Below are positions 1 through 45,196 of a stretch of 64,000 bases of DNA, piece by piece. Each line of letters opens with the position of its first letter. Position 1 is the stretch's first letter. The DNA comes from an uncultured Lachnoclostridium sp. (lineage in GTDB: Bacteria > Bacillota > Clostridia > Lachnospirales > Lachnospiraceae), in NCBI GenBank assembly GCA_946415315.1, contig CAMKRZ010000006.1, positions 4,168-68,167 on the forward strand. The letters are read 5' to 3'. Made by a program: the position numbers and the translations under genes. The notes beneath the pieces were generated by a model. It was not told the DNA's origin and searched no databases. It was given only the letters and a program-made list of their open reading frames with translations.

Positions 1-3000
1 CTCACTGCCTTCACGGGTTCTTCCGTCGCTGCAGCAGGCTTGTCTTTCTTTCTTCCGAACATTGTGGAAATCAGGAAATCGTTATAACTGCCGGTCGGCT
101 TCGTTTCCTCTTCCGTCTCTTTCTTAACCGGTTCCGGAGCAGGTGCCGTCTCTGCCGGCTTCACAGATTTCTCCGGCTCTGCGGCAGTCTTCTTGCCTCT
201 TCCGGAGAACAGTGCTGCAAGAATGTCAGCGTTGGCATTGCCCGAAGTGCTCTTCGGCTCCTCTTCCGCAGGCGTCTCGGCAACCGGCTCTTCCGCAACA
301 GCCTCAACTTCCTCGGCAACCGGCTCTTCCGCTACAGCCTCAACGGCCTCAGCAACCGGTTCTTCCGCAACGGCCTCAACTGCCTCCGCTGCAACTTCCT
401 CGACAGCCTCTGCGATCTCAGGCTCAGCCACGATCGCCGCTTCCTCTGTCGGAATCTCGATACCGGGAACCGCCATCAGCTTGATGGGCTCCTCCGCGAA
501 CTCTTCTTCCGCCGGTGCCTCTGCAACCGGCTCTTCTGCCGCGGGCTCAATCGCCTCTGCCGCGACCTCCGCGGTCACTTCCTCAGCCTCTGCCGCAACC
601 TCCCCGATCGCAGCCTCGGTCTCCGCAACAACCGCTTCCGCCTCCTCGGCGGGTGCCGTAATATCAATACCCGGAACTGCCATCAGTTTGATGGGTTCCT
701 CTGCAAATTCTTCCGTGAACGCCTCAGCAACCGGCTCCTCTGCCGCCTCAGCCGTCTCCTCGATGGCTTCCGCAACAGCCTCGGCAACCGGCTCCTCAAC
801 TGCCGTAAACTCAGGTTCCGCAAAGATTGCTTCCGGCTCCGCAACAGGTGCCGGCGTCTCAATATTCGGAACCGCCATCAGCTTGATGGGTTCCTCCGCA
901 AACTCTTCCTCTGCAACAGGCGCCTCAGCAAACGGCTCGTATCCGACCTGTGCTTCCGCAAATGCCTCCGCCTCGTCGGCAGGTGCTGCCGCTTCTGCTG
1001 CGAACGGTTCAGGCTCCGCTGCCGCGATGCCCGCCTGCTGATGCATGCTGAGCGCCTTGATGTTGTTCGTCAACTCCGCAGTGGTTTCCAGGAGCCGTCC
1101 GTACATCTCCGTCATGCGCATATAATTTTGCGCAAGAGCCGCGATGTTCTTCTCGTCCTCCTCAAGACGGTTCGCAACATATTCTTCCCAGTTGCTCTCC
1201 TCGTGAACAACCTTGCGCTCGGTTACGATCGTCTTGGTGTAGTAGTCCTTGTAAGTCAGTCTTGTACCGAAGACTAAGAACATCACCAGCCCGAGTCCTA
1301 ACATCATCAGGCAGGACTTGTCGTCCTTCAGCATGTCGATCTTCACGATGTCAAATGTTGTGAGAACACCGACCACCATCGCAGCCACCGAGAGACACAT
1401 TCCGATGACAGCGAAGACGCTCACCTTTCTGCGATACATGAGTTTCTGATCGCGATCGGTGATCACCTCCTCCTTCAGCACCTTCTGCAGGCGGCTTCCG
1501 GATACCGGTGTGACAGGCACCGTGAGGATCGGCTCATCCGTTGCAACCTTCTCGGCTGCCTCGCGAACACGGTTCTGTGTCCCCTTGCCCTTGGCGGCGA
1601 AAGCGGACGATCCGCTGTCAACCGCTTCCCCCGGTGTCTCCTCAAGTTCATCATATACGGTCTTGCGACCGGGCTTCTTGGAAAATGCCGTAGCTGCCGC
1701 TGCTGCTGCCGCTGCCTCGGTCACCGTCTTGGAAACCTTCTTCTCGGCTTCAACAGCCTTCCCGGCTGCGCTGACGGCTTTATCTGCTGCATCAGCAGCC
1801 TTATCAGCTGCATCCGCTGCGGTGTCTGTCGCGGCCTCCACTGCTGCTTCCGCAGTCTCCGTCACGGTGTCCGCTTCTGCTGCAATATCCGCAACATTTT
1901 CCGCTGTTTCTTCTATAATGTTATCGCCTGTCTCTTCCCACTCCGCTTTCGGCGCTTCCAGAGGCTTGGCCTCCTGCACCGGTTCCACGTAAGGAGCGTA
2001 GATGGCTTCATCTGCCTTGATCGCATCCGCCTGCGCGATCGGGTCCTCGGTACGGTTCAGAAGACCTCTCTCCGCAAGGAGCTGTGCCAGGGTCTTCTCC
2101 TCGGCCGGCGTATCATCCGCCACAGGTGCTTCATACTGTACAACTTCCACCCCGGGCTCTGCCGCAAATATATGGTCCTCCGCCGGTTTCTTCGCAGCGG
2201 TGCGATTCTTCGCCGCATCCGGTTTCGCTGTTTCCCGGCCTCTTCTCTCCCCGATCTCGCCGACGAGGTTCATCTCCTCCTCAAATGTCGGCCCGTTCGC
2301 AGTCATCTCGGCGATCCGGCGGTTTGCCTCATCCAGGGATTCCATCCCTTCGGTTTCTCCGCCGATTGTCTCCGCAACCGGTTCCGCCGCATCAGCGGAA
2401 ACTGCTTCCGAAGCTTTCTTCGCATTTTCCTCAGTCGGACGAATGAGTGCCCAGTTTACGGTCTTGCCATCCGACTTCGGTTCCTTAGCATCCGACCCCT
2501 GTTTGCGTCCGCCGGACTTGGCAGAACGATCATCCGCTGCGGATTTCGCGTCCTTGCCGGCCGCGCTGACTTCCGCCTGGAACGAATTGTCCAGAGATCC
2601 GGAAAACAGAACGATCGTCAGGAAGTATCCCGCCACCTGAACCAGACTGCTCAGGTCAAGGCAGTTGTCCGCCGCAAAGCAGGAATCTTTAATGACGAAC
2701 GGCGCCCGCTGCAGGAACGTCAGAACCGCTGTTCCGACCGCGGCAATAACCGCCAGAAGGATCAGCAGCTCCTTCGCAGGAATCTTCCCGGGCATCAGGT
2801 TGGTCACGGTCATAATAAACCACCACGACACAAGAATAATACCGATCAGGATGATCCACTGCTCCGTGGATATGGTGTTGTTCTGAATGCTCGGCATGTT
2901 TGTCAGAACCGCGCCGACAGCGTACAAAAGCGCGGGAATCGCCATGATTCCGACCGCCTTCTTGGCCGCGAACCACAGAAACAGTACCATCAGGACAATT

Positions 3001-9254: not shown

Positions 9255-9330
9255 TGGGATTGTCCTCCTGTCATTAGTGAATGATGCAACACGGATTGCT
9301 TCGTTGCTACGCAACTCCCGCAATCCTGTG

Positions 9331-9385
9331 AACACTCGCAATCCGCTCAATTTGCCTGCGGCAAATTGAGCGGATTGCGAGTGTT
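9331..9385. repeat. Perfect 25-bp inverted repeat (hairpin) in the 5' UTR between the T-box terminator and the fusion gene
   Basis: AACACTCGCAATCCGCTCAATTTGC (9331..9355), ctgcg, then GCAAATTGAGCGGATTGCGAGTGTT (9361..9385). There is no U-tract on either strand. Confidence 0.85.
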
Positions 9386-9457
9386 CTTGCGCTCGGCGAT
9401 GTGTGCAGGCGAATCGTGCAAGCACGTTCGCCTGCGCATATCGCCTCACTGTTGCAT

Positions 9458-9725
9458 CAGAAAAGCTCGCCTCAAAGTTGCCTTTGAGACGAGCCATTAT
9501 AACCCGCGGTACCACTCAAATTGCGCTTTCGCGCCACTCAGGGACTCCATCAAGTCCGTTGCTCTCACGCGGCGTCACGGAATTCCTTACTGGCTGCGGC
9601 GCTCTAGCACCGAGGTTTCAGGTCTTCAGCTCGGAAGGGATGTGTCACTTGATGTTCTGCTGCCGGTTCACACCAACCACCGGCTCTCTGAAAGCTTCGA
9701 CATCGGACGGTCTTCGTCATCGCTT
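9458..9725 (-). promoter_or_regulatory. T-box leader (tRNA-sensing riboswitch) with intrinsic terminator
   Basis: Read on the minus strand. Elements: K-turn/GA motif GCGAUGACGAAG (9723..9712) with partner CUUCCGAGC; AG bulge AGAGAG (9689..9684); distal loop UGGUUGGUGUGAA (9679..9667); AGUAAGG (9591..9585) and CCGUGA (9580..9575), which are Stem II/F-box-like; T-box sequence GAGUGGUACCGCGG (9517..9504). The terminator is GCUCGUCUCAAAG-gcaa-CUUUGAGGCGAGC plus CUUUUCU (9494..9458). Confidence 0.85.
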
Positions 9726-36356: not shown

Positions 36357-37181
36357 TCACTTCAGCGGAACAACTGCGCCGTCGTACTTCTCCTCAATGA
36401 ATTTCTTCACGGCGTCGCTCTGCAGAACCTCCACGAGAACCTTGAGTGCCTCGTTGTCCTTCTTGCCGGGAACCGTCGCGATGATGTTGCCGTAGGTCTG
36501 TGCCGCAAGGCCGTCATTTGCCTCGACCGCCAGCGCCTGACTCACATGAAGTCCGCCCTCGATCGCGTAGTTGCCATTGATGACCGCGACGTCAACATCG
36601 GGAAGCGCTGCCACAAGCTGCTCCGGAGCAAGCTCCTTGAACTTGATATTCTTCGGATTGGAGGCGATGTCCTCAACCGTTGCGGTGATGCCCGCCCCCT
36701 CCTTCAGGGTGATGATCCCCTCCTGTGCAAGCAGGAGAAGTGCTCTTGCCTCGTTGGTCACATTGTTGGGAACAGCAATCAGTGCACCATCCGGAAGATC
36801 CTTTAAATCCTTGGTTCTACCAGCGTAGATTCCGAACGGTTCATAGTGGATCGCACCGATGGAAATGAGGTTGCTGCCATTTTCCTTGTTGAACTGCTCA
36901 AGGTAAGGAACATGCTGGAAATAGTTGGCGTCAAGGCTGCCCTCGATCACGCCCGTGTTCGGGGTGATGGAGTCTTCGAGCCGTACGATCTCAAGCGTGT
37001 AACCTTTCTCCTTGAGAATGGGCTTTACATACTCGAGGATCTCCGCGTGGGGAACAATGTTGGCGCCGACCTTGATGGTCTTGCTGTCCTTGCTGCCGTC
37101 ACCGGAGGCCTTCTTGCCGCATCCGGTGAATGCGAGAATGAAAATGAGTGTGAGTACTGTGATAATGATTTTCTTGTTCAT
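36357..37181 (-). CDS. metQ: Methionine ABC transporter substrate-binding lipoprotein (NlpA/MetQ family)
   Basis: Start chosen at ATG 37181; the track ORF extension to 37577 overlaps metI. The lipobox is LAFTGCGKK. It is the last gene after metN-metI. Confidence 0.88.
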   Translation of the reverse strand: MNKKIIITVLTLIFILAFTGCGKKASGDGSKDSKTIKVGANIVPHAEILEYVKPILKEKGYTLEIVRLEDSITPNTGVIEGSLDANYFQHVPYLEQFNKENGSNLISIGAIHYEPFGIYAGRTKDLKDLPDGALIAVPNNVTNEARALLLLAQEGIITLKEGAGITATVEDIASNPKNIKFKELAPEQLVAALPDVDVAVINGNYAIEGGLHVSQALAVEANDGLAAQTYGNIIATVPGKKDNEALKVLVEVLQSDAVKKFIEEKYDGAVVPLK

Positions 37182-37258
37182 GATGGTAATCTCCTTTATT
37201 CTTTGATTAGTTTTTCGTTGTTCCACGGTCGTTTTCTCCGACCTGTAATCCCGCCAGA

Positions 37259-37912
37259 TCAGGTCTTGCGCCGGATCTTTGCGAGTAGTCCTCCTGCTCC
37301 CTGGATCACCATGACCATGATGACCAGAAGGATCACCGTCGTCCAAAGGACGTCTTTCTGATATCGGTAGTAGCCGTACTGCAGCGCGATCGCGCCGAGA
37401 CCGCCGCCTCCGATCACACCTGCCATCGCGGAATAGCCGAGGACTGTGGCCACATTGATCGCCGCTCCCTGAAGAAGGGAAGGCGCCGCTTCCGGCAGGA
37501 TAAAGTGTAAAATGATGTGCAGCGGCGAGGCGCCCATCGACGTCGCCGCCTCTATGATCCCGGGCTGGACCTCGCACAGCGAAGCCTCCGCCATCCGCGC
37601 CACGATCGGGATTGCCCCGACTGTGAGCGGCACGATCGCTGCCGTCGTTCCGATGGACGAACCGGTCACAAAACGTGTGAATGGGATCAGTAACACGAGC
37701 AAAATGAGAAACGGCAGGGACCGCATGATGTCCGTGATCACGCCGATCACAATGTTGACCGGCCGGTTCTGCAGAAGTCTTCCCTTCGCCGTCGCATACA
37801 GGATCACGCCGAGCGGCAGTCCCACGATGTACGCGTACAGGGATGCGTATGCCGTCATTCGCAGCGTCTCCCAGACACCGTTTTTGATGGCTTCGATGAT
37901 GTAATCACTCAT
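37259..37912 (-). CDS. metI: Methionine ABC transporter permease
   Basis: 217 aa with five TM helices, MetI-like. There is an 8-nt overlap with metN. Confidence 0.88.
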   Translation of the reverse strand: MSDYIIEAIKNGVWETLRMTAYASLYAYIVGLPLGVILYATAKGRLLQNRPVNIVIGVITDIMRSLPFLILLVLLIPFTRFVTGSSIGTTAAIVPLTVGAIPIVARMAEASLCEVQPGIIEAATSMGASPLHIILHFILPEAAPSLLQGAAINVATVLGYSAMAGVIGGGGLGAIALQYGYYRYQKDVLWTTVILLVIMVMVIQGAGGLLAKIRRKT

Positions 37913-38957
37913 TGGCGTCCACCTCCGAAATCGACAATCCCTTGCTTTTGAAATACTCCGTCACAACTCTTCGGTCTTCCTCCGACTGCGGCAGTTCCAG
38001 AACCATCTGTCCGTATCCGACGCCGCCCACGCTCTTGGTGTTTGCGCTCAGGATGTTGACCTTCCTTCCTGTCGTAGCCACGAGGTCCGCGATGAACGGT
38101 TCCTTCGCCGATAATCCGTCAAATGCGATCCGGATCAGCCTGCTGTTCTCGTCCGACGGATCGTACGGGTTGCTCGGAAACACCAGTTTCTTCGCCGCCC
38201 GTGACTTTGGTGCCCGGAACACCTCCTTCACGTCACCGACCTCGGCGAGATCGCCGTCGTCGATGATCGCCACACGGTCGCATATGCGTTCCACCACGGA
38301 CATCTCGTGCGTGATGATCACGATGGTCAGCTTCTGTTCCCGATTGATCTTCTGGAGAAGTTCCAGAATCTCGCCCGTGATCTTCGGGTCAAGCGCGCTT
38401 GTCGCCTCGTCGCAGAGCAGAACCTTCGGGTTAGCCGCGAGCGCTCTCGCGATCGCCACTCTCTGCCGCTGTCCGCCGGACAATCTTGCCGGGTACTCCC
38501 TCTCCTTCTCGGAGAGCCCAACGACCTCCAGCATTTTCCGCGCGATCTCCTTTCGCTCCCTGCGCCCTACGCCGGCGATGCGGAGCGGTTGCTCCACGTT
38601 TTTGATCACCGTGCGCTGCTGCAGGAGGTTGAAACCCTGGAATATCATCGCAATCGAGCGACGCACCTTTCGAAGTTCCCTCGCCTTCAGTTCGGCGAGG
38701 TCTCTTCCGAAATATCTGACGCTTCCCGACGTGACTTCCGTCAACCGGTTTAATGTGCGCACCAGTGTGGATTTTCCGGCGCCGCTCATTCCGATGATTC
38801 CAAAGATCTCTCCCTCGCGGATCGTGAAGCTCACATCGCGAAGTGCGGTAAAATCCTTACCTTCGTTTCGGTACGTCTTGGAGACCCGGTCCAGTTCAAA
38901 CACGGTGTCCGACCCGTCATTCGCTATGAAGTTATCCGTTTCATCCACCGTTCCCAT
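37905..38957 (-). CDS. metN: Methionine ABC transporter ATP-binding protein (with C-terminal NIL domain)
   Basis: 350 aa. Walker A is GMSGAGKST, the ABC signature is LSGGQRQRVAIARAL, and Walker B is LLCDEATSALD. A C-terminal ~90-aa regulatory domain is present. Confidence 0.92.
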   Translation of the reverse strand: MGTVDETDNFIANDGSDTVFELDRVSKTYRNEGKDFTALRDVSFTIREGEIFGIIGMSGAGKSTLVRTLNRLTEVTSGSVRYFGRDLAELKARELRKVRRSIAMIFQGFNLLQQRTVIKNVEQPLRIAGVGRRERKEIARKMLEVVGLSEKEREYPARLSGGQRQRVAIARALAANPKVLLCDEATSALDPKITGEILELLQKINREQKLTIVIITHEMSVVERICDRVAIIDDGDLAEVGDVKEVFRAPKSRAAKKLVFPSNPYDPSDENSRLIRIAFDGLSAKEPFIADLVATTGRKVNILSANTKSVGGVGYGQMVLELPQSEEDRRVVTEYFKSKGLSISEVDANE

Positions 38958-38972
38958 TATGTTCCGTGCCTC

Positions 38973-39884
38973 TCAATCGTATAATCCTTTGCTGATATAT
39001 CGGTCGCCGCGGTCCGGGAAGACAGTGACGATGCTGCCGTGATCGATCCGCGCGGCCAGCTTTAGTGCTGCCGTGAGCGCCGCTCCCGACGAGGAACCGG
39101 CCAGGACGCCTTCCCTGCGCGCCAGTTCCTTCACGGTGGCAAATGCCTCCGCGTCCGTCACTTTGATCACCTCGTCGACCAGTGACATGTCCATTGTTTT
39201 GGCAATGAAGTCGTTGCCGATACCTTCGATGTCGTAGTCCGCGTGTTCGCCTCCGCCGATCGTCGAACCGACCGGATCGGCAAGCACTCCCCTTACGGAA
39301 GGTTTCTGTTCTTTCAGGTAGCGGGTGATCCCGCTGAATGTTCCGCCGCTGCCGGCGCCTGCCACAAAGTAATCGACATCACCTTCGAGCTGTCTCCAGA
39401 TCTCCGGCCCCGTGGTCTCGTAGTGCGCCTGCGGGTTAGCCGGGTTGTCGAACTGCTTTAAGGAGATCGCTCCGGGAATGGTTGCGAGAATTTTCTCCGC
39501 TTCCCGCTCCGCCCCGAGCATTCCGAACTCTCGCGGGGTGTTGACGATCTCCGCGCCGAGCGCGCGGAGAACCTTCTGCTTCTCCTGGGAGAATTTGTCG
39601 GGAACCGTGAAGATCACCCGATATCCCTGGTTGAGCGCTGCGATCGCAATGCCGATGCCGGTGTTGCCCGCCGTTGCATCCACGATCGTGCTCCCCTCCT
39701 TAAGAAGCCCTCGCCGCTTCGCGTCATCGATCATATACATGCCTACGCGGTCCTTGACGCTTCCGGCCGGGTTGGCAAGCTCCAGTTTTGCGTACAACCG
39801 AACATCTTTCTTCGTTTCAAACCGCTGCAGTCGAAGGAGCGGAGTGTTTCCGATCATACTGCGGATGTCCATATAAACATCCAT
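38973..39884 (-). CDS. Cysteine synthase-family PLP enzyme (CysK / MccA-type O-acetylserine-dependent cystathionine beta-synthase)
   Basis: It has NPAGSVKDR (PLP lysine) and TAGNTGIGIA. The ATG at 39884 shares one base with the TGA of the upstream gene. Confidence 0.88.
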   Translation of the reverse strand: MDVYMDIRSMIGNTPLLRLQRFETKKDVRLYAKLELANPAGSVKDRVGMYMIDDAKRRGLLKEGSTIVDATAGNTGIGIAIAALNQGYRVIFTVPDKFSQEKQKVLRALGAEIVNTPREFGMLGAEREAEKILATIPGAISLKQFDNPANPQAHYETTGPEIWRQLEGDVDYFVAGAGSGGTFSGITRYLKEQKPSVRGVLADPVGSTIGGGEHADYDIEGIGNDFIAKTMDMSLVDEVIKVTDAEAFATVKELARREGVLAGSSSGAALTAALKLAARIDHGSIVTVFPDRGDRYISKGLYD

Positions 39885-41053
39885 CACCGATCACCCCCTT
39901 TTTCGATCCTTGCAGCCTCGATTGCCTGCTGCAGGTCTTCGATCAGATCGTTCACATCCTCGATACCGACGGAGAAGCGAATGAGCTCATCCACGATACC
40001 GGTCTTCTGCCGAATGTCAGCAGGGATGGAAGCATGCGTCATACTTGCCGGATGGCACACGAGCGACTCAACGCCGCCGAGGCTCTCCGCAAGGGTGATC
40101 AGTTTGAGGTTCCGGAAGAACGCCCGGTAATCGAACTCCTCCTTAAGCACGAAGGAGATCATCGCGCCCGGCCCGTCCGCCTGTTTCTTCTGTACGGCGT
40201 AACCCGGATCCGAAACAAGTCCCGGAAAATAAACCTTCTTCACGTAACCGCTCTCCGTGAGCCACTCCGCGATGCGCTGCGCGTTCGCCACATGACGATC
40301 CATGCGGACGCCGAGCGTCTTGATACCGCGGATGACCAGGAAACTGTCGAACGGGGAGAGAACTCCGCCGATCGCATTTTGCAGAAAATACAATCGCTCC
40401 GCCAGCTTCGGATCGTTGAGGGCCACAAGCCCCGAGATCGTATCGCTGTGTCCTCCGAGGTACTTCGTACCGCTGTGAAGGACGATGTCCGCTCCGAGCA
40501 ATAACGGTCGTTGCAGGTAAGGCGTAAGGAATGTATTATCAACGATCAGGAGGACGTTGGCCTTCCTTGCGATCTCTGCGACCGCCGCAATGTCCGTCAC
40601 GCTCAGGAGCGGATTTGCAGGAGTCTCAATGTAGATAGCCTTCGTATTTTCATCGACCGCCGCCGCGACTTTTGCGGCATCGGCCGTATCCACGATCTCA
40701 TACCGGAGCCCGAGCGGTTTGAACACCTTGTCGAGGATCCGGAACGTGCCGCCGTAAATGTTGTCAGACACGATCAGCTTGTCACCTGCCGTGAACAGCG
40801 AGAGCACCGTATGGATCGCCGCAAGACCCGAGGCAAATGCGAGTCCGTACGCGCCGCCCTCCAGGTCTGCGATCAGTTTCTCGAGCGCCGCTCTCGTCGG
40901 GTTGCCGGTGCGGGAGTATTCCCAGCCGGTGTTGACGCCGAGCTCGCTCTGCTTGTAAGTTGATGTTTGATAGATCGGAACGTTGACCGCTCCGGTTGTT
41001 TTGTCTCCGTCGATCCCGCCGTGGATCAGCAGGGAATTCAATGCGTAACTCAT
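39884..41053 (-). CDS. Cys/Met-metabolism PLP-dependent lyase (cystathionine gamma-lyase/beta-lyase, MccB/MetC-like)
   Basis: 389 aa with the HSGTKYLGGHSD PLP-lysine motif. It is the first gene after the leader. Confidence 0.9.
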   Translation of the reverse strand: MSYALNSLLIHGGIDGDKTTGAVNVPIYQTSTYKQSELGVNTGWEYSRTGNPTRAALEKLIADLEGGAYGLAFASGLAAIHTVLSLFTAGDKLIVSDNIYGGTFRILDKVFKPLGLRYEIVDTADAAKVAAAVDENTKAIYIETPANPLLSVTDIAAVAEIARKANVLLIVDNTFLTPYLQRPLLLGADIVLHSGTKYLGGHSDTISGLVALNDPKLAERLYFLQNAIGGVLSPFDSFLVIRGIKTLGVRMDRHVANAQRIAEWLTESGYVKKVYFPGLVSDPGYAVQKKQADGPGAMISFVLKEEFDYRAFFRNLKLITLAESLGGVESLVCHPASMTHASIPADIRQKTGIVDELIRFSVGIEDVNDLIEDLQQAIEAARIEKGGDR

Positions 41054-41107
41054 TGTTTGATAACCTCGTTTTCTGATGTGTTGTCGGCAACCTCGCGAGC
41101 TAAGCGC

Positions 41108-41139
41108 AAATTAAAAGGAGCCTTCAAACTGAAAGCTCC
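41108..41139 (-). terminator. Intrinsic terminator inside the mccB-operon leader (attenuator)
   Basis: Minus strand GGAGCUUUC-aguuu-GAAGGCUCC followed by UUUUAAUUU. It lies 55 nt upstream of the mccB-like ATG. Confidence 0.75.
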
Positions 41140-41170
41140 CGAGCATACGGCATTATCGCATTATCGTCCC

Positions 41171-41311
41171 TTATCTACAACATCGACGGTGATCACGATC
41201 GAGGCGCAACGAAAAGCAGTCGAACGCCCCAGCCATAGGTAATGCCCGGGATAGTTTCAGCATTCGACAACAACACATTACTGTAAGATTGTAGTTAGCA
41301 ACGCTCTTCAT
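41171..41311 (-). CDS. Putative Cys-rich leader peptide (46 aa)
   Basis: GAAAGGAG, 9 nt, ATG 41311. Hand translation gives MKSVANYNLTVMCCCRMLKLSRALPMAGAFDCFSLRLDRDHRRCCR, stop TAA 41173..41171. It is below the ORF-track size cutoff. Confidence 0.5.
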   Translation of the reverse strand: MKSVANYNLTVMCCCRMLKLSRALPMAGAFDCFSLRLDRDHRRCCR

Positions 41312-41341
41312 CTTGGTGCGCTCCTTTCGTGTGATGGCGCT

Positions 41342-41370
41342 ATGTTAACACCATCAACCTACTATGTCAA
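41342..41370 (-). promoter_or_regulatory. Promoter of the leader/mccB-mccA-metNIQ operon
   Basis: Minus strand TTGACA (41370..41365), 17 nt, TAACAT (41347..41342). The -35 is embedded in CCTATTGACATAGTAGG, which contains the AATAGG half-site of the Rrf2-associated palindrome. Confidence 0.7.
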
Positions 41371-41421
41371 TAGGCAATTTGAAAATTTATTTATCTTTTT
41401 CGTCCCCCTGTCCCTCCGGTA

Positions 41422-42486
41422 TCACAGCAGCCCGCACTCAGGGAACAACCGGTGCGGGTCAACCTTCGCGTATTCCTGCCCGCTCCGCGGGAATGTGATC
41501 TCATACAATACCGTGTCAAAATGGATGTTCTTGGATTCCTCCAGCAACGCCGCGGCGCAGTGCTCCTTCGGCAGTCCGATCACGAAGATCCCGTAACGCT
41601 CGCAGATCTTCTTTGTGATCTCCTGCAGGAAGACGCGGTAATACTCCTCGCGGTCATCCCTGCACAGGAAGAAGGAAAGCATCGGAAAATCAAGCGGCGC
41701 ATCCTCCTTCGGCAGCCGGATGTAACGAAGCGCCGACAGAAGAGGATTGGCGATGCGCGCAAGCCGCATGAGACCGCGGTACCGTTTTACGACATACTGT
41801 TTGTACGGCGTCTGGTTCCAGAGCGCTGCGGTCGCAACGATCTCCTCCCCGTCGAGCAACAACCAGAAGTCACGGCAGTTCAGGTTGTAAAACTGCTCAA
41901 GCGAGCGCACCACCGGAAACAGGTCCTTCCTGCTTCCCTCCCGGTTCAGAAAACCGATCAGCGCGGGCACATCTGCCTCCTCCGCCGGCCGAAACGTCAG
42001 GGAGTGTTTCGGCGCCCTGATCTTCACCTTCGGATTGAAAATGTATGTCCGGTATTCGGCCATCGGCTTCATCGAGATGCTACGCCGCTCTCTCCCGAAC
42101 AGCTTCTTCGCCTCCTCGTTGTCCGTCACGACCGAACAATAGTAGTAATCGATATCATCCCTCTGCAGGCCGTGCATAAACGTGGCGAAATACCCCATGC
42201 CGCCCTCGAGCGCGGCATCCTTCTTCAGCCCGCACAGGTATGCGGCGCGGCGCGCCTCCCCACCGATGTACACCTCGCGGATCAGCTCCGCGCATGTCCC
42301 GATGACGCGGCCTCCGCTGCGCGTCACGAACACGCGGGATTCACCCGGCTCGCGCATATACGACTCGTAGGCATCGGGGCGCCTCGTGTACAGAAGCTCC
42401 ATGCTCCCCTTGGCGGCCGAACTCTCCAGTATGCGCAATATCTCCCGCCCGTCCTCCGGCGTTGCCAGATAGTTTGCTTCCCTCAT
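41422..42486 (-). CDS. Two-lobed GNAT-like (acyl-CoA N-acyltransferase fold?) protein, function unknown
   Basis: 354 aa. The ATGA start/stop overlap with the preceding radical SAM gene suggests translational coupling. Two ~150-aa halves each have GNAT-like beta-alpha patterns (VIGTCAELI...; EIVATAALWNQ...). The assignment is tentative. Confidence 0.5.
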   Translation of the reverse strand: MREANYLATPEDGREILRILESSAAKGSMELLYTRRPDAYESYMREPGESRVFVTRSGGRVIGTCAELIREVYIGGEARRAAYLCGLKKDAALEGGMGYFATFMHGLQRDDIDYYYCSVVTDNEEAKKLFGRERRSISMKPMAEYRTYIFNPKVKIRAPKHSLTFRPAEEADVPALIGFLNREGSRKDLFPVVRSLEQFYNLNCRDFWLLLDGEEIVATAALWNQTPYKQYVVKRYRGLMRLARIANPLLSALRYIRLPKEDAPLDFPMLSFFLCRDDREEYYRVFLQEITKKICERYGIFVIGLPKEHCAAALLEESKNIHFDTVLYEITFPRSGQEYAKVDPHRLFPECGLL

Positions 42487-43823
42487 TTCTTCGATTCCTC
42501 AAGATTTTCCCCGATCGGGATCCCGGAGCGCTTGTCCACCTCAAAATGGAACAGGATATTGATGAACCAGTACGCGAAGTTGATCCGCAGCCCGCGGGCG
42601 CGGCGAAGCATGGTCCATCCTCTTCGGAAAATGGATCCGAACCGGAAGAATTCCTTCTTGTATTTCTTGCATAAATCCCGGAGCTGCTCGGGCGTCAGCT
42701 GCTTCGGCGTGAACGTGATCGTGCCGAACGTGTAGCCGCTCTGCAGCCACCACTGCTCGGAGATCAGGCGATTTTCCGCTTTGAACGACTCGTACGTTTT
42801 GGTGTTCGGGAAGATCAGCAGGTGGTTGAACGCGATGACGAAGAAACGGTGGCGCTTGCAGAACGCGAGCGTCTCCTTGAAGGTATCCTCGTTGTCCTGG
42901 TCAAAGCCGAACACGAAGCTCGCATAGATGCTGATGCCGGCCTTGTGGATGCGCTCGATCAGCTCGTCACGCTCGCCGAGGCGTTCCGTCCAGCCCTTGT
43001 TCATCTGCTTGAGGTTGTCGCTCTTGATGGACTCAAAGCCGATCAGCACCATCTCGCAGCCGCTCTTCTTCATCAGCCGGAGCATCTCCTCGTCGCGCGC
43101 GATGTCAAGCGTGATCTGTGTCGTCCAGATGATCTTGATTTTCCGAAGTTCCTCGAACAGCTCCTTCGCAAACACCTTGTTGGAAAAGATACTGTCATCC
43201 ACGAAGAAGAACAGCTTGTGTTTGCATGTCTTGATCTCCGCGATAATGTCGGCGACTTCCCGGTGAATGTAGTGGGAATGGTAGTATCCGGCGATGGAGC
43301 AGAACTCGCAGTTGTGGTAGCAGCCGCGCCCCGTCTCCACCAGAGACACCGGAAGATACTTCTTCCGCTTATCCTCGTAAATGCTTCTGTCCGGCATCCG
43401 GTAAGCGATGCAGGCACCGCCGTCGTACCTCGGTTTCAACTCGCCGTTCTCGATGTCTGAAAGAACGTCGGACAGGATGCGGTCGGCATTTCCGACCATC
43501 ACGGCGTCCGCATACTGCATCGCCTCATTGGGACACAGCGTGACGTGATACCCTCCCAGCACGACTTTCTTCCCGCGCTTGCGGAACTCGCCCGCGATGA
43601 AGTACGCCCGCTTGGCAGTGTACGTCTCCACGGTGATCATGACGATGTCCGTCTCGGTGTCGTAGTTGATATTTTCGATCCGGTCATCGAAAAATTCTCT
43701 CTCGTAATCGGCGGGAACCATGGAATTCAGAACCGCGATCGTCAACGGCTCCATCAGCCAGCTCTTGAGATATTTCTCGCCCGGTTTCTTTCCGATGGCA
43801 GGCAGTATAAACGTGATCTTCAT
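42483..43823 (-). CDS. B12-binding-domain radical SAM protein (paralogue 3)
   Basis: Start chosen at ATG 43823 (AAAGGAG upstream), giving MKITFILPAIG... It has a Rossmann/B12-like N-domain (DIVMITVETYTAKRAY, GGYHVTL) and the cluster motif GRGCYHNCEFCSI. Confidence 0.88.
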   Translation of the reverse strand: MKITFILPAIGKKPGEKYLKSWLMEPLTIAVLNSMVPADYEREFFDDRIENINYDTETDIVMITVETYTAKRAYFIAGEFRKRGKKVVLGGYHVTLCPNEAMQYADAVMVGNADRILSDVLSDIENGELKPRYDGGACIAYRMPDRSIYEDKRKKYLPVSLVETGRGCYHNCEFCSIAGYYHSHYIHREVADIIAEIKTCKHKLFFFVDDSIFSNKVFAKELFEELRKIKIIWTTQITLDIARDEEMLRLMKKSGCEMVLIGFESIKSDNLKQMNKGWTERLGERDELIERIHKAGISIYASFVFGFDQDNEDTFKETLAFCKRHRFFVIAFNHLLIFPNTKTYESFKAENRLISEQWWLQSGYTFGTITFTPKQLTPEQLRDLCKKYKKEFFRFGSIFRRGWTMLRRARGLRINFAYWFINILFHFEVDKRSGIPIGENLEESKK

Positions 43824-43891
43824 CGCTGCTCCTTTCGTGTCCCGTACAGTTTGTATAAAGCGTATCCCTGCGACAACGCGAGGTTCCGCGG

Positions 43892-45196
43892 TCAATGCTT
43901 TGCAAGTGTCTTCGCAACTTTTTTGTTGTACATGCGGAAGCCGATATTGACGGCAAATTTGATCAGCCCGCCGTATTTATTCCGAAGAGCTCTCCTTCGG
44001 ATCCTCTTGAAGGTGTAGCATTCGTTGGAGACCTCCACCAGCATCTCCTCCAGCTCCTGCGCCGTACAATTCTTCGGCTGAAAAGTCGCGTGGATGCTGT
44101 CATAGTCGTTCCAGTCGCGGGAGAGGATGCGTCCCTCCGCGTCCAGCCGCTCGAACGTCGGCGTGTTCGGGTACGGCGTGAGGATCGCGAAGCGAGGGAT
44201 ATCCACACCGATCTCCTCGATGTAGTCGGGCATTTTCCGAATGGACTCCCTCGTGTCCCCGTCAAACCCGATCATGAAGGTCCCGAGGATCGTGACGCCG
44301 CTTTGGTGGAACTTCTCCACCACAGCCTTGTACTGCTCGACCTTGTTGCGCTTGTTGCTCTCCTTAAGGCTCTCCTCGCTGAACGTCTCAAAGCCCATCA
44401 GGATGCCGATACAGCCGCTTCGGATCATCAGGTCAAACAGTTCCTCGTCCCGGTAAATGTCCGTCGTGCACAGCCCTGCCCACTTGATCTTAAGCGGGAT
44501 CAGCGCCTCGTAAAATGCTTTCGCGTACACGCGGTTGGAGGTCGGTGAGGGATCGAGGAACAGGATCCTCTTCTTGCCGAGCGAGCGGATCTCGTCGATG
44601 ACATCCTCCACCTTCCGCGCCGTGTGGCGTCCGCCCCAGAACGAGTTGATCACGCAGAACTCGCATTTGTTCGTGCAGCCGAAATTCGCGATGACCGTCG
44701 GCACGCCGATGTACTTGCGCTTCGCCATCAAGTCCCGCCTGGGGATCACATTCACCGTGCCGATATCGCACGGCTGTCCGTCGTACCGTTTCTTCGGCGC
44801 CCCGCTCGCAAAGTCCGCGATAAACTCGCGCCAGACCCGGTCTGCCGGGCCGGTCAGCACCGTGTCGGCGTGCTGCGCCGCCTCGTCCGGCAGCAGCGTC
44901 ACGTGGTGCCCGCCCATGACGATGTAACTGCCCTTGCGCCGGAACAGTTCCGCGAGCTCGTACCCACGCTTCACCGAAGACGTCACTGCCGTGATCGCCA
45001 CGATATCGTAGGCATCCATTTTCTCATAGTTGACCTTCTGAACGCCCTCATCGACCGCGCGGAACTCCGCGTGGTACTCCTCCGGCGTCAGAGCCGCGAG
45101 GTACGGCATCGTGAGCGGCATGTAACTGAGCGATTTCGAGAAGGCGCTCCGATACCGGTAGTTGTTATCGTACGGCGTCAGAAACAGAATTTTCAT
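43892..45196 (-). CDS. B12-binding-domain radical SAM protein (paralogue 2)
   Basis: 434 aa starting MKILFLTPYD..., with DIVAITAVTSSVKRGY, GGHHVTL and the cluster motif NFGCTNKCEFCVI. GGAGG lies upstream. The start overlaps paralogue 1 by 32 nt. Confidence 0.9.
   Translation of the reverse strand: MKILFLTPYDNNYRYRSAFSKSLSYMPLTMPYLAALTPEEYHAEFRAVDEGVQKVNYEKMDAYDIVAITAVTSSVKRGYELAELFRRKGSYIVMGGHHVTLLPDEAAQHADTVLTGPADRVWREFIADFASGAPKKRYDGQPCDIGTVNVIPRRDLMAKRKYIGVPTVIANFGCTNKCEFCVINSFWGGRHTARKVEDVIDEIRSLGKKRILFLDPSPTSNRVYAKAFYEALIPLKIKWAGLCTTDIYRDEELFDLMIRSGCIGILMGFETFSEESLKESNKRNKVEQYKAVVEKFHQSGVTILGTFMIGFDGDTRESIRKMPDYIEEIGVDIPRFAILTPYPNTPTFERLDAEGRILSRDWNDYDSIHATFQPKNCTAQELEEMLVEVSNECYTFKRIRRRALRNKYGGLIKFAVNIGFRMYNKKVAKTLAKH

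Follow-up and report, generated by a model that had tools for sequence, protein, structure and literature searches.

A cysteine-codon leader peptide with a covarying terminator/antiterminator switch upstream of sulfur amino acid operons in rumen and gut Clostridia: a probable transcription attenuator

In Firmicutes, genes that convert methionine and homocysteine into cysteine, or import methionine, are normally controlled by S-box or T-box RNA elements or by CymR, whereas leader-peptide attenuation, although a textbook mechanism, is rare in these bacteria. The ubiG-mccB-mccA operon of Clostridium acetobutylicum combines a Cys-specific T-box with S-box control, and in Bacillus control is exerted by CymR; in the classical trp leader, a pairing that occludes the ribosome-binding site (RBS) once the RNA has folded is part of the described system. 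When the His leader of bacilli (hisZ/hisS*) was reported in 2010, it was described as the first of its kind outside Proteobacteria and Actinobacteria (PMC2965389). For cysteine, polycysteine leaderless small open reading frames (ORFs) of mycobacteria sense the amino acid via ribosome stalling and act at the level of translation, through sequestration of the RBS (Canestrari et al., bioRxiv 10.1101/834739); Cys-codon leader ORFs without terminators have been predicted for actinobacterial cys operons (PMC1262725); and in Rhodobacterales, ribosome-mediated attenuation of transcription has been predicted for cysS, in the form of the uORFC-8-2 motif that lies upstream of this gene (Brewer et al. 2021, PMC8632094). 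A full-text search returned no Cys leader peptide described in Firmicutes or upstream of mccB, metY or metQ, with subscription journals largely outside its coverage, so that a prior description is possible. Here, we analyse a leader on the minus strand of a 64,000-nucleotide (nt) stretch of DNA from an uncultured Lachnoclostridium sp. (contig CAMKRZ010000006.1, positions 4,168 to 68,167; the whole stretch is hereafter called the window), where a Cys-codon ORF, an intrinsic terminator and a competing antiterminator precede an operon for methionine-to-cysteine conversion and methionine uptake. With a probability of roughly 0.85, we consider this leader to be a ribosome-mediated transcription attenuator of the trp/his type that reads the supply of charged tRNA-Cys. 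All evidence presented on the leader is computational and comparative.

The whole element is contained in the 368-nt minus-strand spacer between a gene for a 354-amino-acid (aa) protein and the mccB-like gene. A consensus scan recovers the sigma-70-type promoter reported in the first-pass annotation of this DNA, TTGACA-17-TAACAT with a TG extension (41342..41370, minus strand, as are all leader features below; 10 of 12 consensus matches), the -35 region of which is nearly identical across distant leader loci. Transcription is predicted from this promoter to start at about 41335, approximately 24 nt upstream of the leader ATG. The Shine-Dalgarno (SD) sequence GAAAGGAG (41321..41328), which together with the following bases GCGCA makes up the 5' strand of the SD-sequestering helix P0 described below, is separated by 9 nt from the ATG of an ORF of 46 codons plus stop, MKSVANYNLTVMCCCRMLKLSRALPMAGAFDCFSLRLDRDHRRCCR (41171..41311), that the source assemblies do not list among their gene calls. 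The ORF contains six Cys codons in total. Codons 13-15, TGT TGT TGT (41267..41275), form the putative regulatory run; an ATG stands directly before it and CGA ATG follows it, that is, the second Met is one codon off. The second TGT TGT lies one Arg codon ahead of the stop, the ORF ending with CGA UGU UGU AGA UAA (41171..41185). Downstream, the stem-loop GGGAGCUUUCA-GUU-UGAAGGCUCCU (41116..41140; 11 pairs counting G-U) and the U-rich tract UUUAAUUUG (41107..41115) are predicted from sequence to form an intrinsic terminator. Promoter, SD, ORF and Cys run are all located where the first-pass annotation had placed them, and its hairpin with a U-tract is recovered as well, with a T-rich tail reaching about 41107. 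The leader itself is real, but the length of ~250 nt given to it needs correction, to ~280 nt from the predicted start to the mccB ATG (41053) and ~230 nt to the end of the terminator.

Evidence that the small ORF is used comes from its relatives. A scan with the MccB protein, taking one genome per species, yielded 80 loci with MccB proteins 72-92% identical, nearly all from rumen Lachnospiraceae, Oscillospiraceae/Ruminococcaceae, Saccharofermentans and unclassified Clostridiales; an identical MccB protein occurs on three contigs, in the gene calls of which the small ORF is likewise absent. The leaders have diverged past BLAST detection, with the window leader recognisable by BLASTN in only five of the loci (68-75% identity). 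Nevertheless, the 600 nt upstream of mccB, when searched, contained in approximately 60 loci a small ORF that starts with ATG, is preceded by an SD and bears consecutive Cys codons. Such ORFs with at least two consecutive Cys codons are present in 57 of 79 distinct upstream regions, whereas none of the 79 reverse complements contains one and dinucleotide shuffles yield 0.8 on average; with at least three consecutive Cys codons, the counts are 27, 0 and 0.1, respectively. The run consists of 2, 3, 4, 5 or 6 codons in 32, 13, 4, 5 and 2 leaders, and is written with 124 TGT and 32 TGC codons. Leader peptides range from 17 to 60 residues, with 4-36 unconserved codons ahead of the run, so that neither the sequence nor the length of the N-terminal part is conserved; Cys accounts for 14.6% of the residues and is the only one that forms a run in every group. 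An SD-like motif precedes the ATG in nearly all relatives. In an alignment of 43 distinct leaders built with MAFFT without structural input (A1), invariant columns within the 5' part are limited to the first two positions of two Cys codons, the third position varying. The SD, the ATG, the codon-wise variation of the run, the TGT/TGC synonymy and the invariant Cys positions are marks of a translated ORF in which Cys codons are selected. Thus, the expectation that the ORF and its Cys run would be kept in relatives is borne out.

The loci devoid of a Cys ORF are mostly those in which mccB closely follows another gene or the contig ends; a search of these relatives with Rfam for a T-box or a riboswitch for S-adenosylmethionine (SAM) found none. 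Several loci depart from the common arrangement. About 150 nt upstream of mccB, locus L075 carries a variant ORF, MTIEDHDVRFFRMCSMSGMLGLCNMRSEMTRC, in which the R-M-C...R-C-stop frame is kept with single Cys codons and no run; this leader may be a degenerate or differently tuned member of the family. In L008, a tRNA-Met gene (anticodon CAT; 2866..2937) lies directly upstream of mccB, in the place of the leader. In L081, which belongs to the same species as the window, an insertion of ~148 nt (~2790..2945) separates the leader terminator from the mccB RBS; it is bounded by the inverted repeat GAGTATTCAC...GTGAATACCGAG and resembles a small element of the miniature inverted-repeat transposable element type. 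A similar pair, TATTCACGG...CGTGAATAG, flanks a long insert in the L038 leader.

The second line of evidence concerns the switch. In 58 of 60 leaders, the ORF stop is followed by a terminator, mostly 12-44 nt further on; this terminator lies 24-220 nt upstream of the RBS of the structural gene, and its 5' arm has a conserved GCCCGGGAG-type core across relatives. The strand that decides between the two states, S2 (UCCCGGGCAU, 41242..41251), coincides with the 'SRA' codons of the leader peptide, UCC CGG GCA, whose CCCGGGC complements the terminator 5' arm; S2 could pair either with S3a, in the off state, or with S6 (GCCGU AUGCUCGGGA, 41137..41151), the 3' strand of the antiterminator, the 3' end of which is the start of the terminator 5' arm. 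In the window, the antiterminator helix CCCGGGCAU:AUGCUCGGG joins 41251..41242 to 41146..41137 and includes an additional AUGGC:GCCGU pairing. The first-pass annotation had proposed a competing helix between 41260..41242 and 41146..41129; its complementarity and core were correct, and the conserved covarying core is UCCCGGGCAU:AUGCUCGGGA, but the CUGAAA:UUUCAG extension is specific to the window genome.

On alignment A1, 72% of the S2:S6 cells are paired, compared to 20-44% in controls with the 3' partner slid 1-3 columns along, and the covariation score is 0.171 versus at most 0.111 in the slid controls; neither the pairing nor the covariation value was reached in any of 500 column shuffles. 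One pair alone occurs as AU in 16, UA in 8, GU in 4, GC in 2 and CG and UG in 1 leader each. Compensatory changes, which the first-pass annotation had suggested looking for in the alternative helices, include GGGCAU:AUGCUC in the window, GGGCUG:CAGCCC in group B, GGGCG:CGCCC in L024, GGGCC:GGCCC in L031, CCCGAGC:GCUCGGG in L004, CCGGAC:GUCCGG in L003 and CCGAACAGAUGAU:AUCAUUUGUUCGG in L005. An alignment-free swap test, in which the strand pair of each leader is compared with one strand combined with partners from other leaders, gives the same picture: the median for own partners is -18.9 kcal/mol versus -15.0 kcal/mol for swapped ones (p=6e-10), in 20 of 50 leaders, compared to 3 expected, the own partner is among the three best, and three control segment pairs are flat.

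The switch comprises further parts that the two-helix model of the first-pass annotation missed, although the antiterminator core of that model stands. S1 (GUCGAAUGC, 41260..41268), covering the last Cys codon, Arg and Met, is the 5' strand of an outer helix, P1, the 3' strand of which, S3 (AUGGCUGGG plus GCGUUCGAC, 41219..41236), coincides with the 'MAGAFD' codons; in this predicted anti-antiterminator hairpin, S1 pairs with GCGUUCGAC and S2 with AUGGCUGGG, and the AUGGC of S3 can alternatively lengthen the antiterminator through GCCGU at 41151..41147. S1 pairs with 41227..41219 in the unconstrained fold of the window leader, and the helix is 79% paired across 43 leaders. On A1, P1 as a whole is 75.6% paired, compared to 30-46% in slid controls, a level reached in none of 500 shuffles, so that its role as an anti-antiterminator is moderately supported by the comparison. 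S4 (UUGCGCCUC, 41201..41209; the 'LRL'/'MRL' codons) is the 3' strand of P0: AUGCGCCUU or its equivalents pair with the SD/start region of the leader ORF, with compensatory examples such as GGAGGCGC:GCGCCUU, GGAGACAG:CUGUCUU, GAAGCAG:CUGCUUC, GAGGCAC:GUGCCUC and AGGCGUAUAAU:AUUAUGCGCCU. Because MAFFT failed to hold the SD block in register, column counting is unusable for P0, and it was assessed by the swap test (own -14.3 versus swapped -10.1 kcal/mol, p=6e-8; negative controls flat). The domain containing the Cys run and S2 is closed by P0, which also occludes the leader RBS once the RNA is folded. A further helix, P2 (GGGGCG:CGCCUC, S3:S4), needed by our first model, was rejected, given that a slide of -2 pairs equally well and 98 of 500 shuffles reach its score.

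These extra helices bear on how the peptide itself is to be read. The pattern that recurs among the leaders is M-C-C-(C)-R-M ... S-R-A ... M-A-G-A-F-D ... M-R-L ... R-C-stop, and, given P1 and the SD:'MRL' helix, most of this conservation (CRM, SRA, MAGAFD and MRL) is, judging from the alignments, a constraint of RNA pairing. The exception is the C-terminal end, conserved as CGAUGU(U/C)(G/A)A among leaders L001-L203: 41 of 50 leaders from genomes and 59 of 100 from metagenomes (see below) have a Cys among their last 3 residues, compared to 5% Cys elsewhere in the peptides, and a covarying partner for this Arg-Cys-stop block was sought in the downstream spacer and in S1 and not found. The block may be a second Cys checkpoint.

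If the ribosome is the reader of this switch, the position of the Cys run relative to S2 should matter. A ribosome footprint of 30 nt (A site -18 to +11) was moved codon by codon along 54 distinct leaders, and we calculated sequestration, i.e., the free energy with which the upstream RNA holds the terminator 5' arm in a transcript truncated after that arm; the folding model is thermodynamic, with neither kinetics nor sterics. Median sequestration amounts to 6.9 kcal/mol for a ribosome whose A site is at a codon of the Cys run and to 2.4 kcal/mol for one located 3-8 codons after the run (p=7e-10), compared to 4.7 kcal/mol with no ribosome and 4.6 kcal/mol with the ribosome at the stop codon. 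In 61% of leaders, the biggest drop comes 1-4 codons past the last Cys; uniformly placed drops would do so in 15%. A footprint on the run frees the antiterminator strand, and 2-3 codons further on it masks the strand; thus, the Cys run is the last position at which a stalled ribosome leaves this strand free. For the window, the corresponding values are 1.7 without a ribosome, 6.9 on the run, 1.6 after it and 2.2 at the stop. In constrained folds of the window leader, P0, P1 and the terminator form the minimum-energy structure without a ribosome or with the ribosome at the stop, and S2:S6 replaces the terminator when the A site is on Cys13, Cys14 or Cys15; the competing helix of the first-pass annotation is thereby recovered in a computed fold. 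In full-length equilibrium calculations, the terminator probability falls with the ribosome on the run in the window-like group, from 0.62 to about 0.2-0.4 in the window, from 0.72 to 0 in L003 and from 0.79 to 0.1 in L004.

The genes behind the leader were assigned as a methionine-to-cysteine and methionine-uptake operon in the first-pass annotation, and family matches agree. The first regulated gene, mccB-like (39884..41053, minus strand), encodes a member of the cystathionine gamma-lyase/homocysteine desulfhydrase family that matches NCBIfam PRK07671 and PRK06176 at ~548 bits, under their equivalog cut-offs. It is followed on the same strand by an mccA-like gene of the cysteine synthase/cystathionine beta-synthase family (38973..39887; TIGR01136, 350 bits) and by metN, metI and metQ of a methionine ABC transporter (36357..38957; metN 37905..38957, metI 37259..37912 and metQ about 36357..37181 in the gene calls; matches to TIGR02314, PRK10782 and TIGR00363). 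Among leader-bearing loci, mccA lies downstream on the same strand in 56 of 58. The gene context fits Cys sensing, in that the products supply, by synthesis or import, the amino acid presumed to be sensed or the precursors of this amino acid. The window has a single copy of the leader. Just upstream of it, on the minus strand (41422..45196), are two B12-binding radical-SAM genes (470 and 434 aa) and the gene for the 354-aa protein (41422..42486), which has no NCBIfam match; among the loci examined, this trio was seen in the window's own species only and is unrelated to the attenuator. Two other RNAs were recorded in passing: a full-length Clostridiales-1 RNA (RF01699; 95.7 bits, E=3e-20), a small RNA of unknown function, at 9282..9459 of the window (minus strand), and a TwoAYGGAY RNA (RF01731, 94 bits) downstream of the mccB operon of Lachnospiraceae bacterium XPB1003 (L079, 5399..5565).

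The mechanism that we propose starts from what computation and comparison establish, namely, an ORF with a Cys run placed as described relative to S2, a terminator, and two helices that covary, the antiterminator and P0. Transcription would start ~24 nt upstream of the 46-codon ORF, and a ribosome would load on the nascent RNA. When Cys-tRNA is scarce, this ribosome would stall with one of the three UGU codons in the A site, its footprint covering S1 and thereby blocking the pairing of S1 and S2 with S3 in P1. S2, which starts ~16 nt past the last Cys codon, would stay free and pair with S6 once the latter is made, taking up the terminator 5' arm and allowing read-through into mccB-mccA-metNIQ, with the result that methionine and homocysteine would be turned into cysteine and methionine would be imported. 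When Cys-tRNA is plentiful, the ribosome would cross S2 and reach the stop, P1 would re-form behind it and S4 would pair with the SD region in P0; together, these helices would lock S2 away and block further ribosome loading, the terminator hairpin would form, and transcription would end at about 41107. Absence of translation would lead to the same off-state fold. Most likely, then, the methionine-to-cysteine and methionine-uptake genes would be on only when charged Cys tRNA is short. The first-pass annotation had reasoned to the same trp/his-type logic, and, of the outcomes that it held would refute this, those open to computation, i.e., loss of the small ORF and its Cys codons from relatives that keep the leader and a significant match to a known riboswitch, were both looked for and neither was observed.

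Several observations weigh against this interpretation or limit its reach. Translation of the ORF, ribosome stalling, the order of folding and the physiological response are steps that we infer. The conserved Arg-Cys-stop block is not accounted for by attenuation as modelled, and P2, a part of the initial switch model, turned out to be unsupported, with S4 pairing with the SD region instead. P1 shows no own-partner advantage in the swap test (p=0.18 and 0.41), probably because its segments are too conserved, and its 3' strand, S3, is absent from the short group C leaders. The folding model takes no account of ribosome bulk. Where terminators are very GC-rich, the equilibrium terminator probability is flat at every ribosome position, so that there the decision would have to be kinetic, with the antiterminator forming first; and, given that many leaders sequester the terminator arm appreciably with no ribosome at all (the median of 4.7 kcal/mol above), their off state is less cleanly predicted than that of the window. 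Finally, the leaders are homologous, so that the counts are not independent events, and the shuffle controls ignore relatedness, such that the statistics overstate independence.

Three other explanations were considered. The same switch could be driven by a ligand-, tRNA- or protein-binding RNA, such as an unrecognised riboswitch, a degenerate T-box or a TRAP/PyrR-like target, the ORF being incidental. A terminator/antiterminator pair is common to all such mechanisms, much of the peptide conservation is really at the RNA level, in paired segments, and elements of this sort, or CymR, are what Firmicutes usually employ for such genes. However, an incidental ORF would not be expected to keep its SD, ATG, frame and codon-wise Cys run in 57 of 79 regions with none on the other strand, and, beyond the switch helices, there is no conserved structured domain that could house a ligand pocket. 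Furthermore, no Rfam family matches the leader at the gathering score (whole window) or at E<=10 (40950..41500), nor do 20 related leaders match any family, T-box and SAM classes included, at the gathering score; the T-box model (RF00230) is specifically without a match at E<=10 in 40950..41500 and at the gathering score in 40 related loci, and S-box/SAM-I and the other Rfam classes of SAM riboswitches have no match in the window leader or in related loci. These searches agree with the first-pass annotation, which had seen no S-box or T-box motifs, and we regard a binding RNA as highly improbable. Still more improbable, in our view, is that the ORF encodes a functional Cys-rich micropeptide, whether a SCIFF/ranthipeptide-type precursor of a peptide that is made by ribosomes and modified after translation (RiPP) or a metal- or redox-active peptide, with the hairpin as its terminator. 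A 46-residue product with six Cys residues, encoded on the same strand as two B12-binding radical-SAM genes and the 354-aa gene upstream, does invite this reading. Yet homologues of the radical-SAM and 354-aa genes occur within 3 kb in none of the 58 other leader loci, where mccA is the regular neighbour, the promoter stands between the ORF and the upstream genes, and seven leader peptides have no NCBIfam or Pfam match at E<=10, NCBIfam including the models by which NCBI names RiPP precursors and leader peptides. The RiPP-precursor version was rejected on account of the missing radical-SAM neighbours and family matches, and, for any micropeptide, a length that varies from 17 to 60 residues, sequence conservation only where the RNA pairs and a covarying antiterminator that is left unexplained are hard to accommodate.

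There is somewhat more to be said for, but still little likelihood in, the possibility that the ORF is translated and controls the operon but that the signal is not specifically Cys-tRNA, i.e., that it is also Met, general translation speed or nascent-peptide arrest, or that the output is partly translational or Rho-dependent. An AUG precedes the run and recurs at +2 after it in most leaders, the operon imports methionine too, the Arg-Cys-stop end is unexplained, and the mycobacterial polycysteine ORFs act on translation (bioRxiv 10.1101/834739). Nevertheless, no residue other than Cys occurs as a run in every group. In several leaders, GUG, UUG, ACU or AAG stands in place of the AUG before the run, and the AUG after it sits inside the paired segment S1; sensing of Met as well, which the first-pass annotation had allowed for, may occur but gains no support from the leaders compared. 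A specific arrest peptide is made less likely by the fact that, apart from the paired segments, the peptide is not conserved. As for the output, a canonical intrinsic terminator with a U tract is conserved well ahead of the structural gene RBS. A 9-base-pair complementarity in the window between the Cys run and a CA-rich stretch before the mccB RBS, a candidate for translational control, was rejected: such pairing is not enriched across leaders (p=0.38), and we therefore take it as chance. Attenuation in response to charged tRNA-Cys thus remains the interpretation that we favour.

Compared with the described systems, this Cys leader shares with the classical attenuators (trp, his, thr, leu, pheA and ilv of E. 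coli/Salmonella and His of bacilli, PMC2965389) an ORF with a run of cognate codons, a terminator, an overlapping antiterminator and an upstream sequestering segment, and its chain of several helices resembles that of the his leader. It differs in sensing Cys, in preceding genes for reverse transsulfuration and methionine uptake, in its clostridial host, in a stop codon that lies ~70 nt past the antiterminator strand rather than adjoining it, and in the conserved Arg-Cys-stop end; it has no sequence similarity to any Rfam leader family. Cys runs, proposed stalling and parallel operons (a 'ribulon' in the word of the authors) are shared with the mycobacterial polycysteine small ORFs. However, the latter are leaderless, and there the stalled ribosome prevents an RBS-sequestering duplex, whereas the Cys leader has an SD, a predicted 5' untranslated region of ~24 nt, an intrinsic terminator and a covarying antiterminator; there is no relation between the two in sequence or phylum. 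The uORFC-8-2 motif likewise has tandem Cys codons, at about positions 14-15 of the upstream ORF, followed by a terminator stem and a U run, but it is found only upstream of cysS in alpha-proteobacteria and has two stems, with the mostly UGC Cys codons in the first. By its description, it is thus distinct from the Cys leader, which is found in Clostridia, precedes biosynthesis and uptake genes, and is characterized by the P0/P1/antiterminator/terminator helix set and a CCCGGG core. Functionally, the nearest counterpart is the T-box of ubiG-mccB-mccA, which governs the same kind of operon by the same logic, premature termination answering to tRNA-Cys charging; the T-box, however, reads uncharged tRNA through RNA-tRNA pairing, whereas the proposed reader of the Cys leader is the ribosome.

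The leader is not confined to mccB. A metagenome scan with the pattern ATGTGTTGTCGAATG-N6-22-CCGGG matched at least 120 contigs, mostly from rumen and gut. The matches listed include ~100 distinct leader-like ORFs; the downstream sequence is sufficient for 95 of these, of which 90 are followed by a terminator that shares the 5' arm, the median distance from the stop being 27 nt. The first downstream gene, again among the matches listed, encodes an O-acetylhomoserine/O-acetylserine sulfhydrylase on about 37 contigs (TIGR01326, 631 bits), a MetQ lipoprotein on 23 (MetQ/NlpA family), a cystine-binding protein on 9 (PRK11260), and a cystine-type permease on 2; it is cysK on 2 (TIGR01139, 461 bits), mccB on a few, and codes for a PepT-like peptidase and a LysR-family regulator on 1 contig each. 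Thus, the element described in the first-pass annotation as a single device is real but belongs to a large family spread over several sulfur amino acid operons, and the contexts of L084-L203 would amount to a Cys/Met regulon under leader-peptide attenuators in rumen and gut Clostridia. A handful of high-GC metagenome matches look like chance. In L119, L159 and L178, which are high-GC and actinobacterium-like, short ORFs ending ...MCCRMC(R/A) lie upstream of an OmpR-type response regulator; these could be chance pattern matches or unrelated polycysteine small ORFs.

A second level of control is suggested by a near-invariant palindrome, CCTATTGACATAGTAGG (CCTA-N9-TAGG; 41358..41374, minus strand), that overlaps the -35 box of the window promoter. 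The CCTA-N9-TAGG motif is present, 63-77 nt upstream of the leader ATG, in 104 of 159 distinct leader-bearing regions, compared to 0.3 in shuffles. Broken down according to the gene that follows, it occurs in 24 of 37 metY-like, 20 of 23 metQ and 2 of 2 cysK contexts and in 0 of 6 operons for cystine-binding proteins. The palindrome fits the LysR-type T-N11-A box, and LysR-family genes adjoin mccB in L069 and L071 and lie downstream of the leader in L127. It is a candidate operator, through which a presumed LysR-type factor would probably exert DNA-level control of the same regulon at initiation.

Taken to its full extent, this argument would have Cys leader attenuators replacing T-box, S-box and CymR control in rumen and gut Clostridia and running, together with a LysR-type operator, a Cys/Met regulon that comprises mccBA-metNIQ, the O-acetylhomoserine/O-acetylserine sulfhydrylase gene, metQ, the cystine transporter and cysK. 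In this extended scheme, sensing would proceed through two checkpoints, with the poly-Cys run as the first sensor and Arg-Cys-stop as the second, the latter placed where a ribosome coupled to RNA polymerase sits while the terminator is made, and the SD:S4 clamp would ensure one measuring ribosome per transcript. We put this forward tentatively, as a possibility that is on balance doubtful.

In summary, the Cys leaders appear to constitute an undescribed family of RNA and small ORFs, with well over a hundred distinct examples in several sulfur amino acid operons of abundant rumen and gut anaerobes. Attenuation by a Cys leader peptide has been demonstrated only in mycobacteria, where it is translational, and predicted for one gene of Rhodobacterales. 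The family provides a regulatory annotation for genes that had none, along with a small ORF absent from gene calls, and is a clear case in which apparent conservation of a peptide reflects RNA pairing. It is carried by cultured organisms, namely, Lachnospiraceae bacterium P6B14, AC2031 and XPB1003, Eubacterium oxidoreducens DSM 3217 and Ruminococcaceae bacterium AB4001. Within the Clostridia, these leaders would represent a natural example of the replacement of a T-box by a leader peptide.

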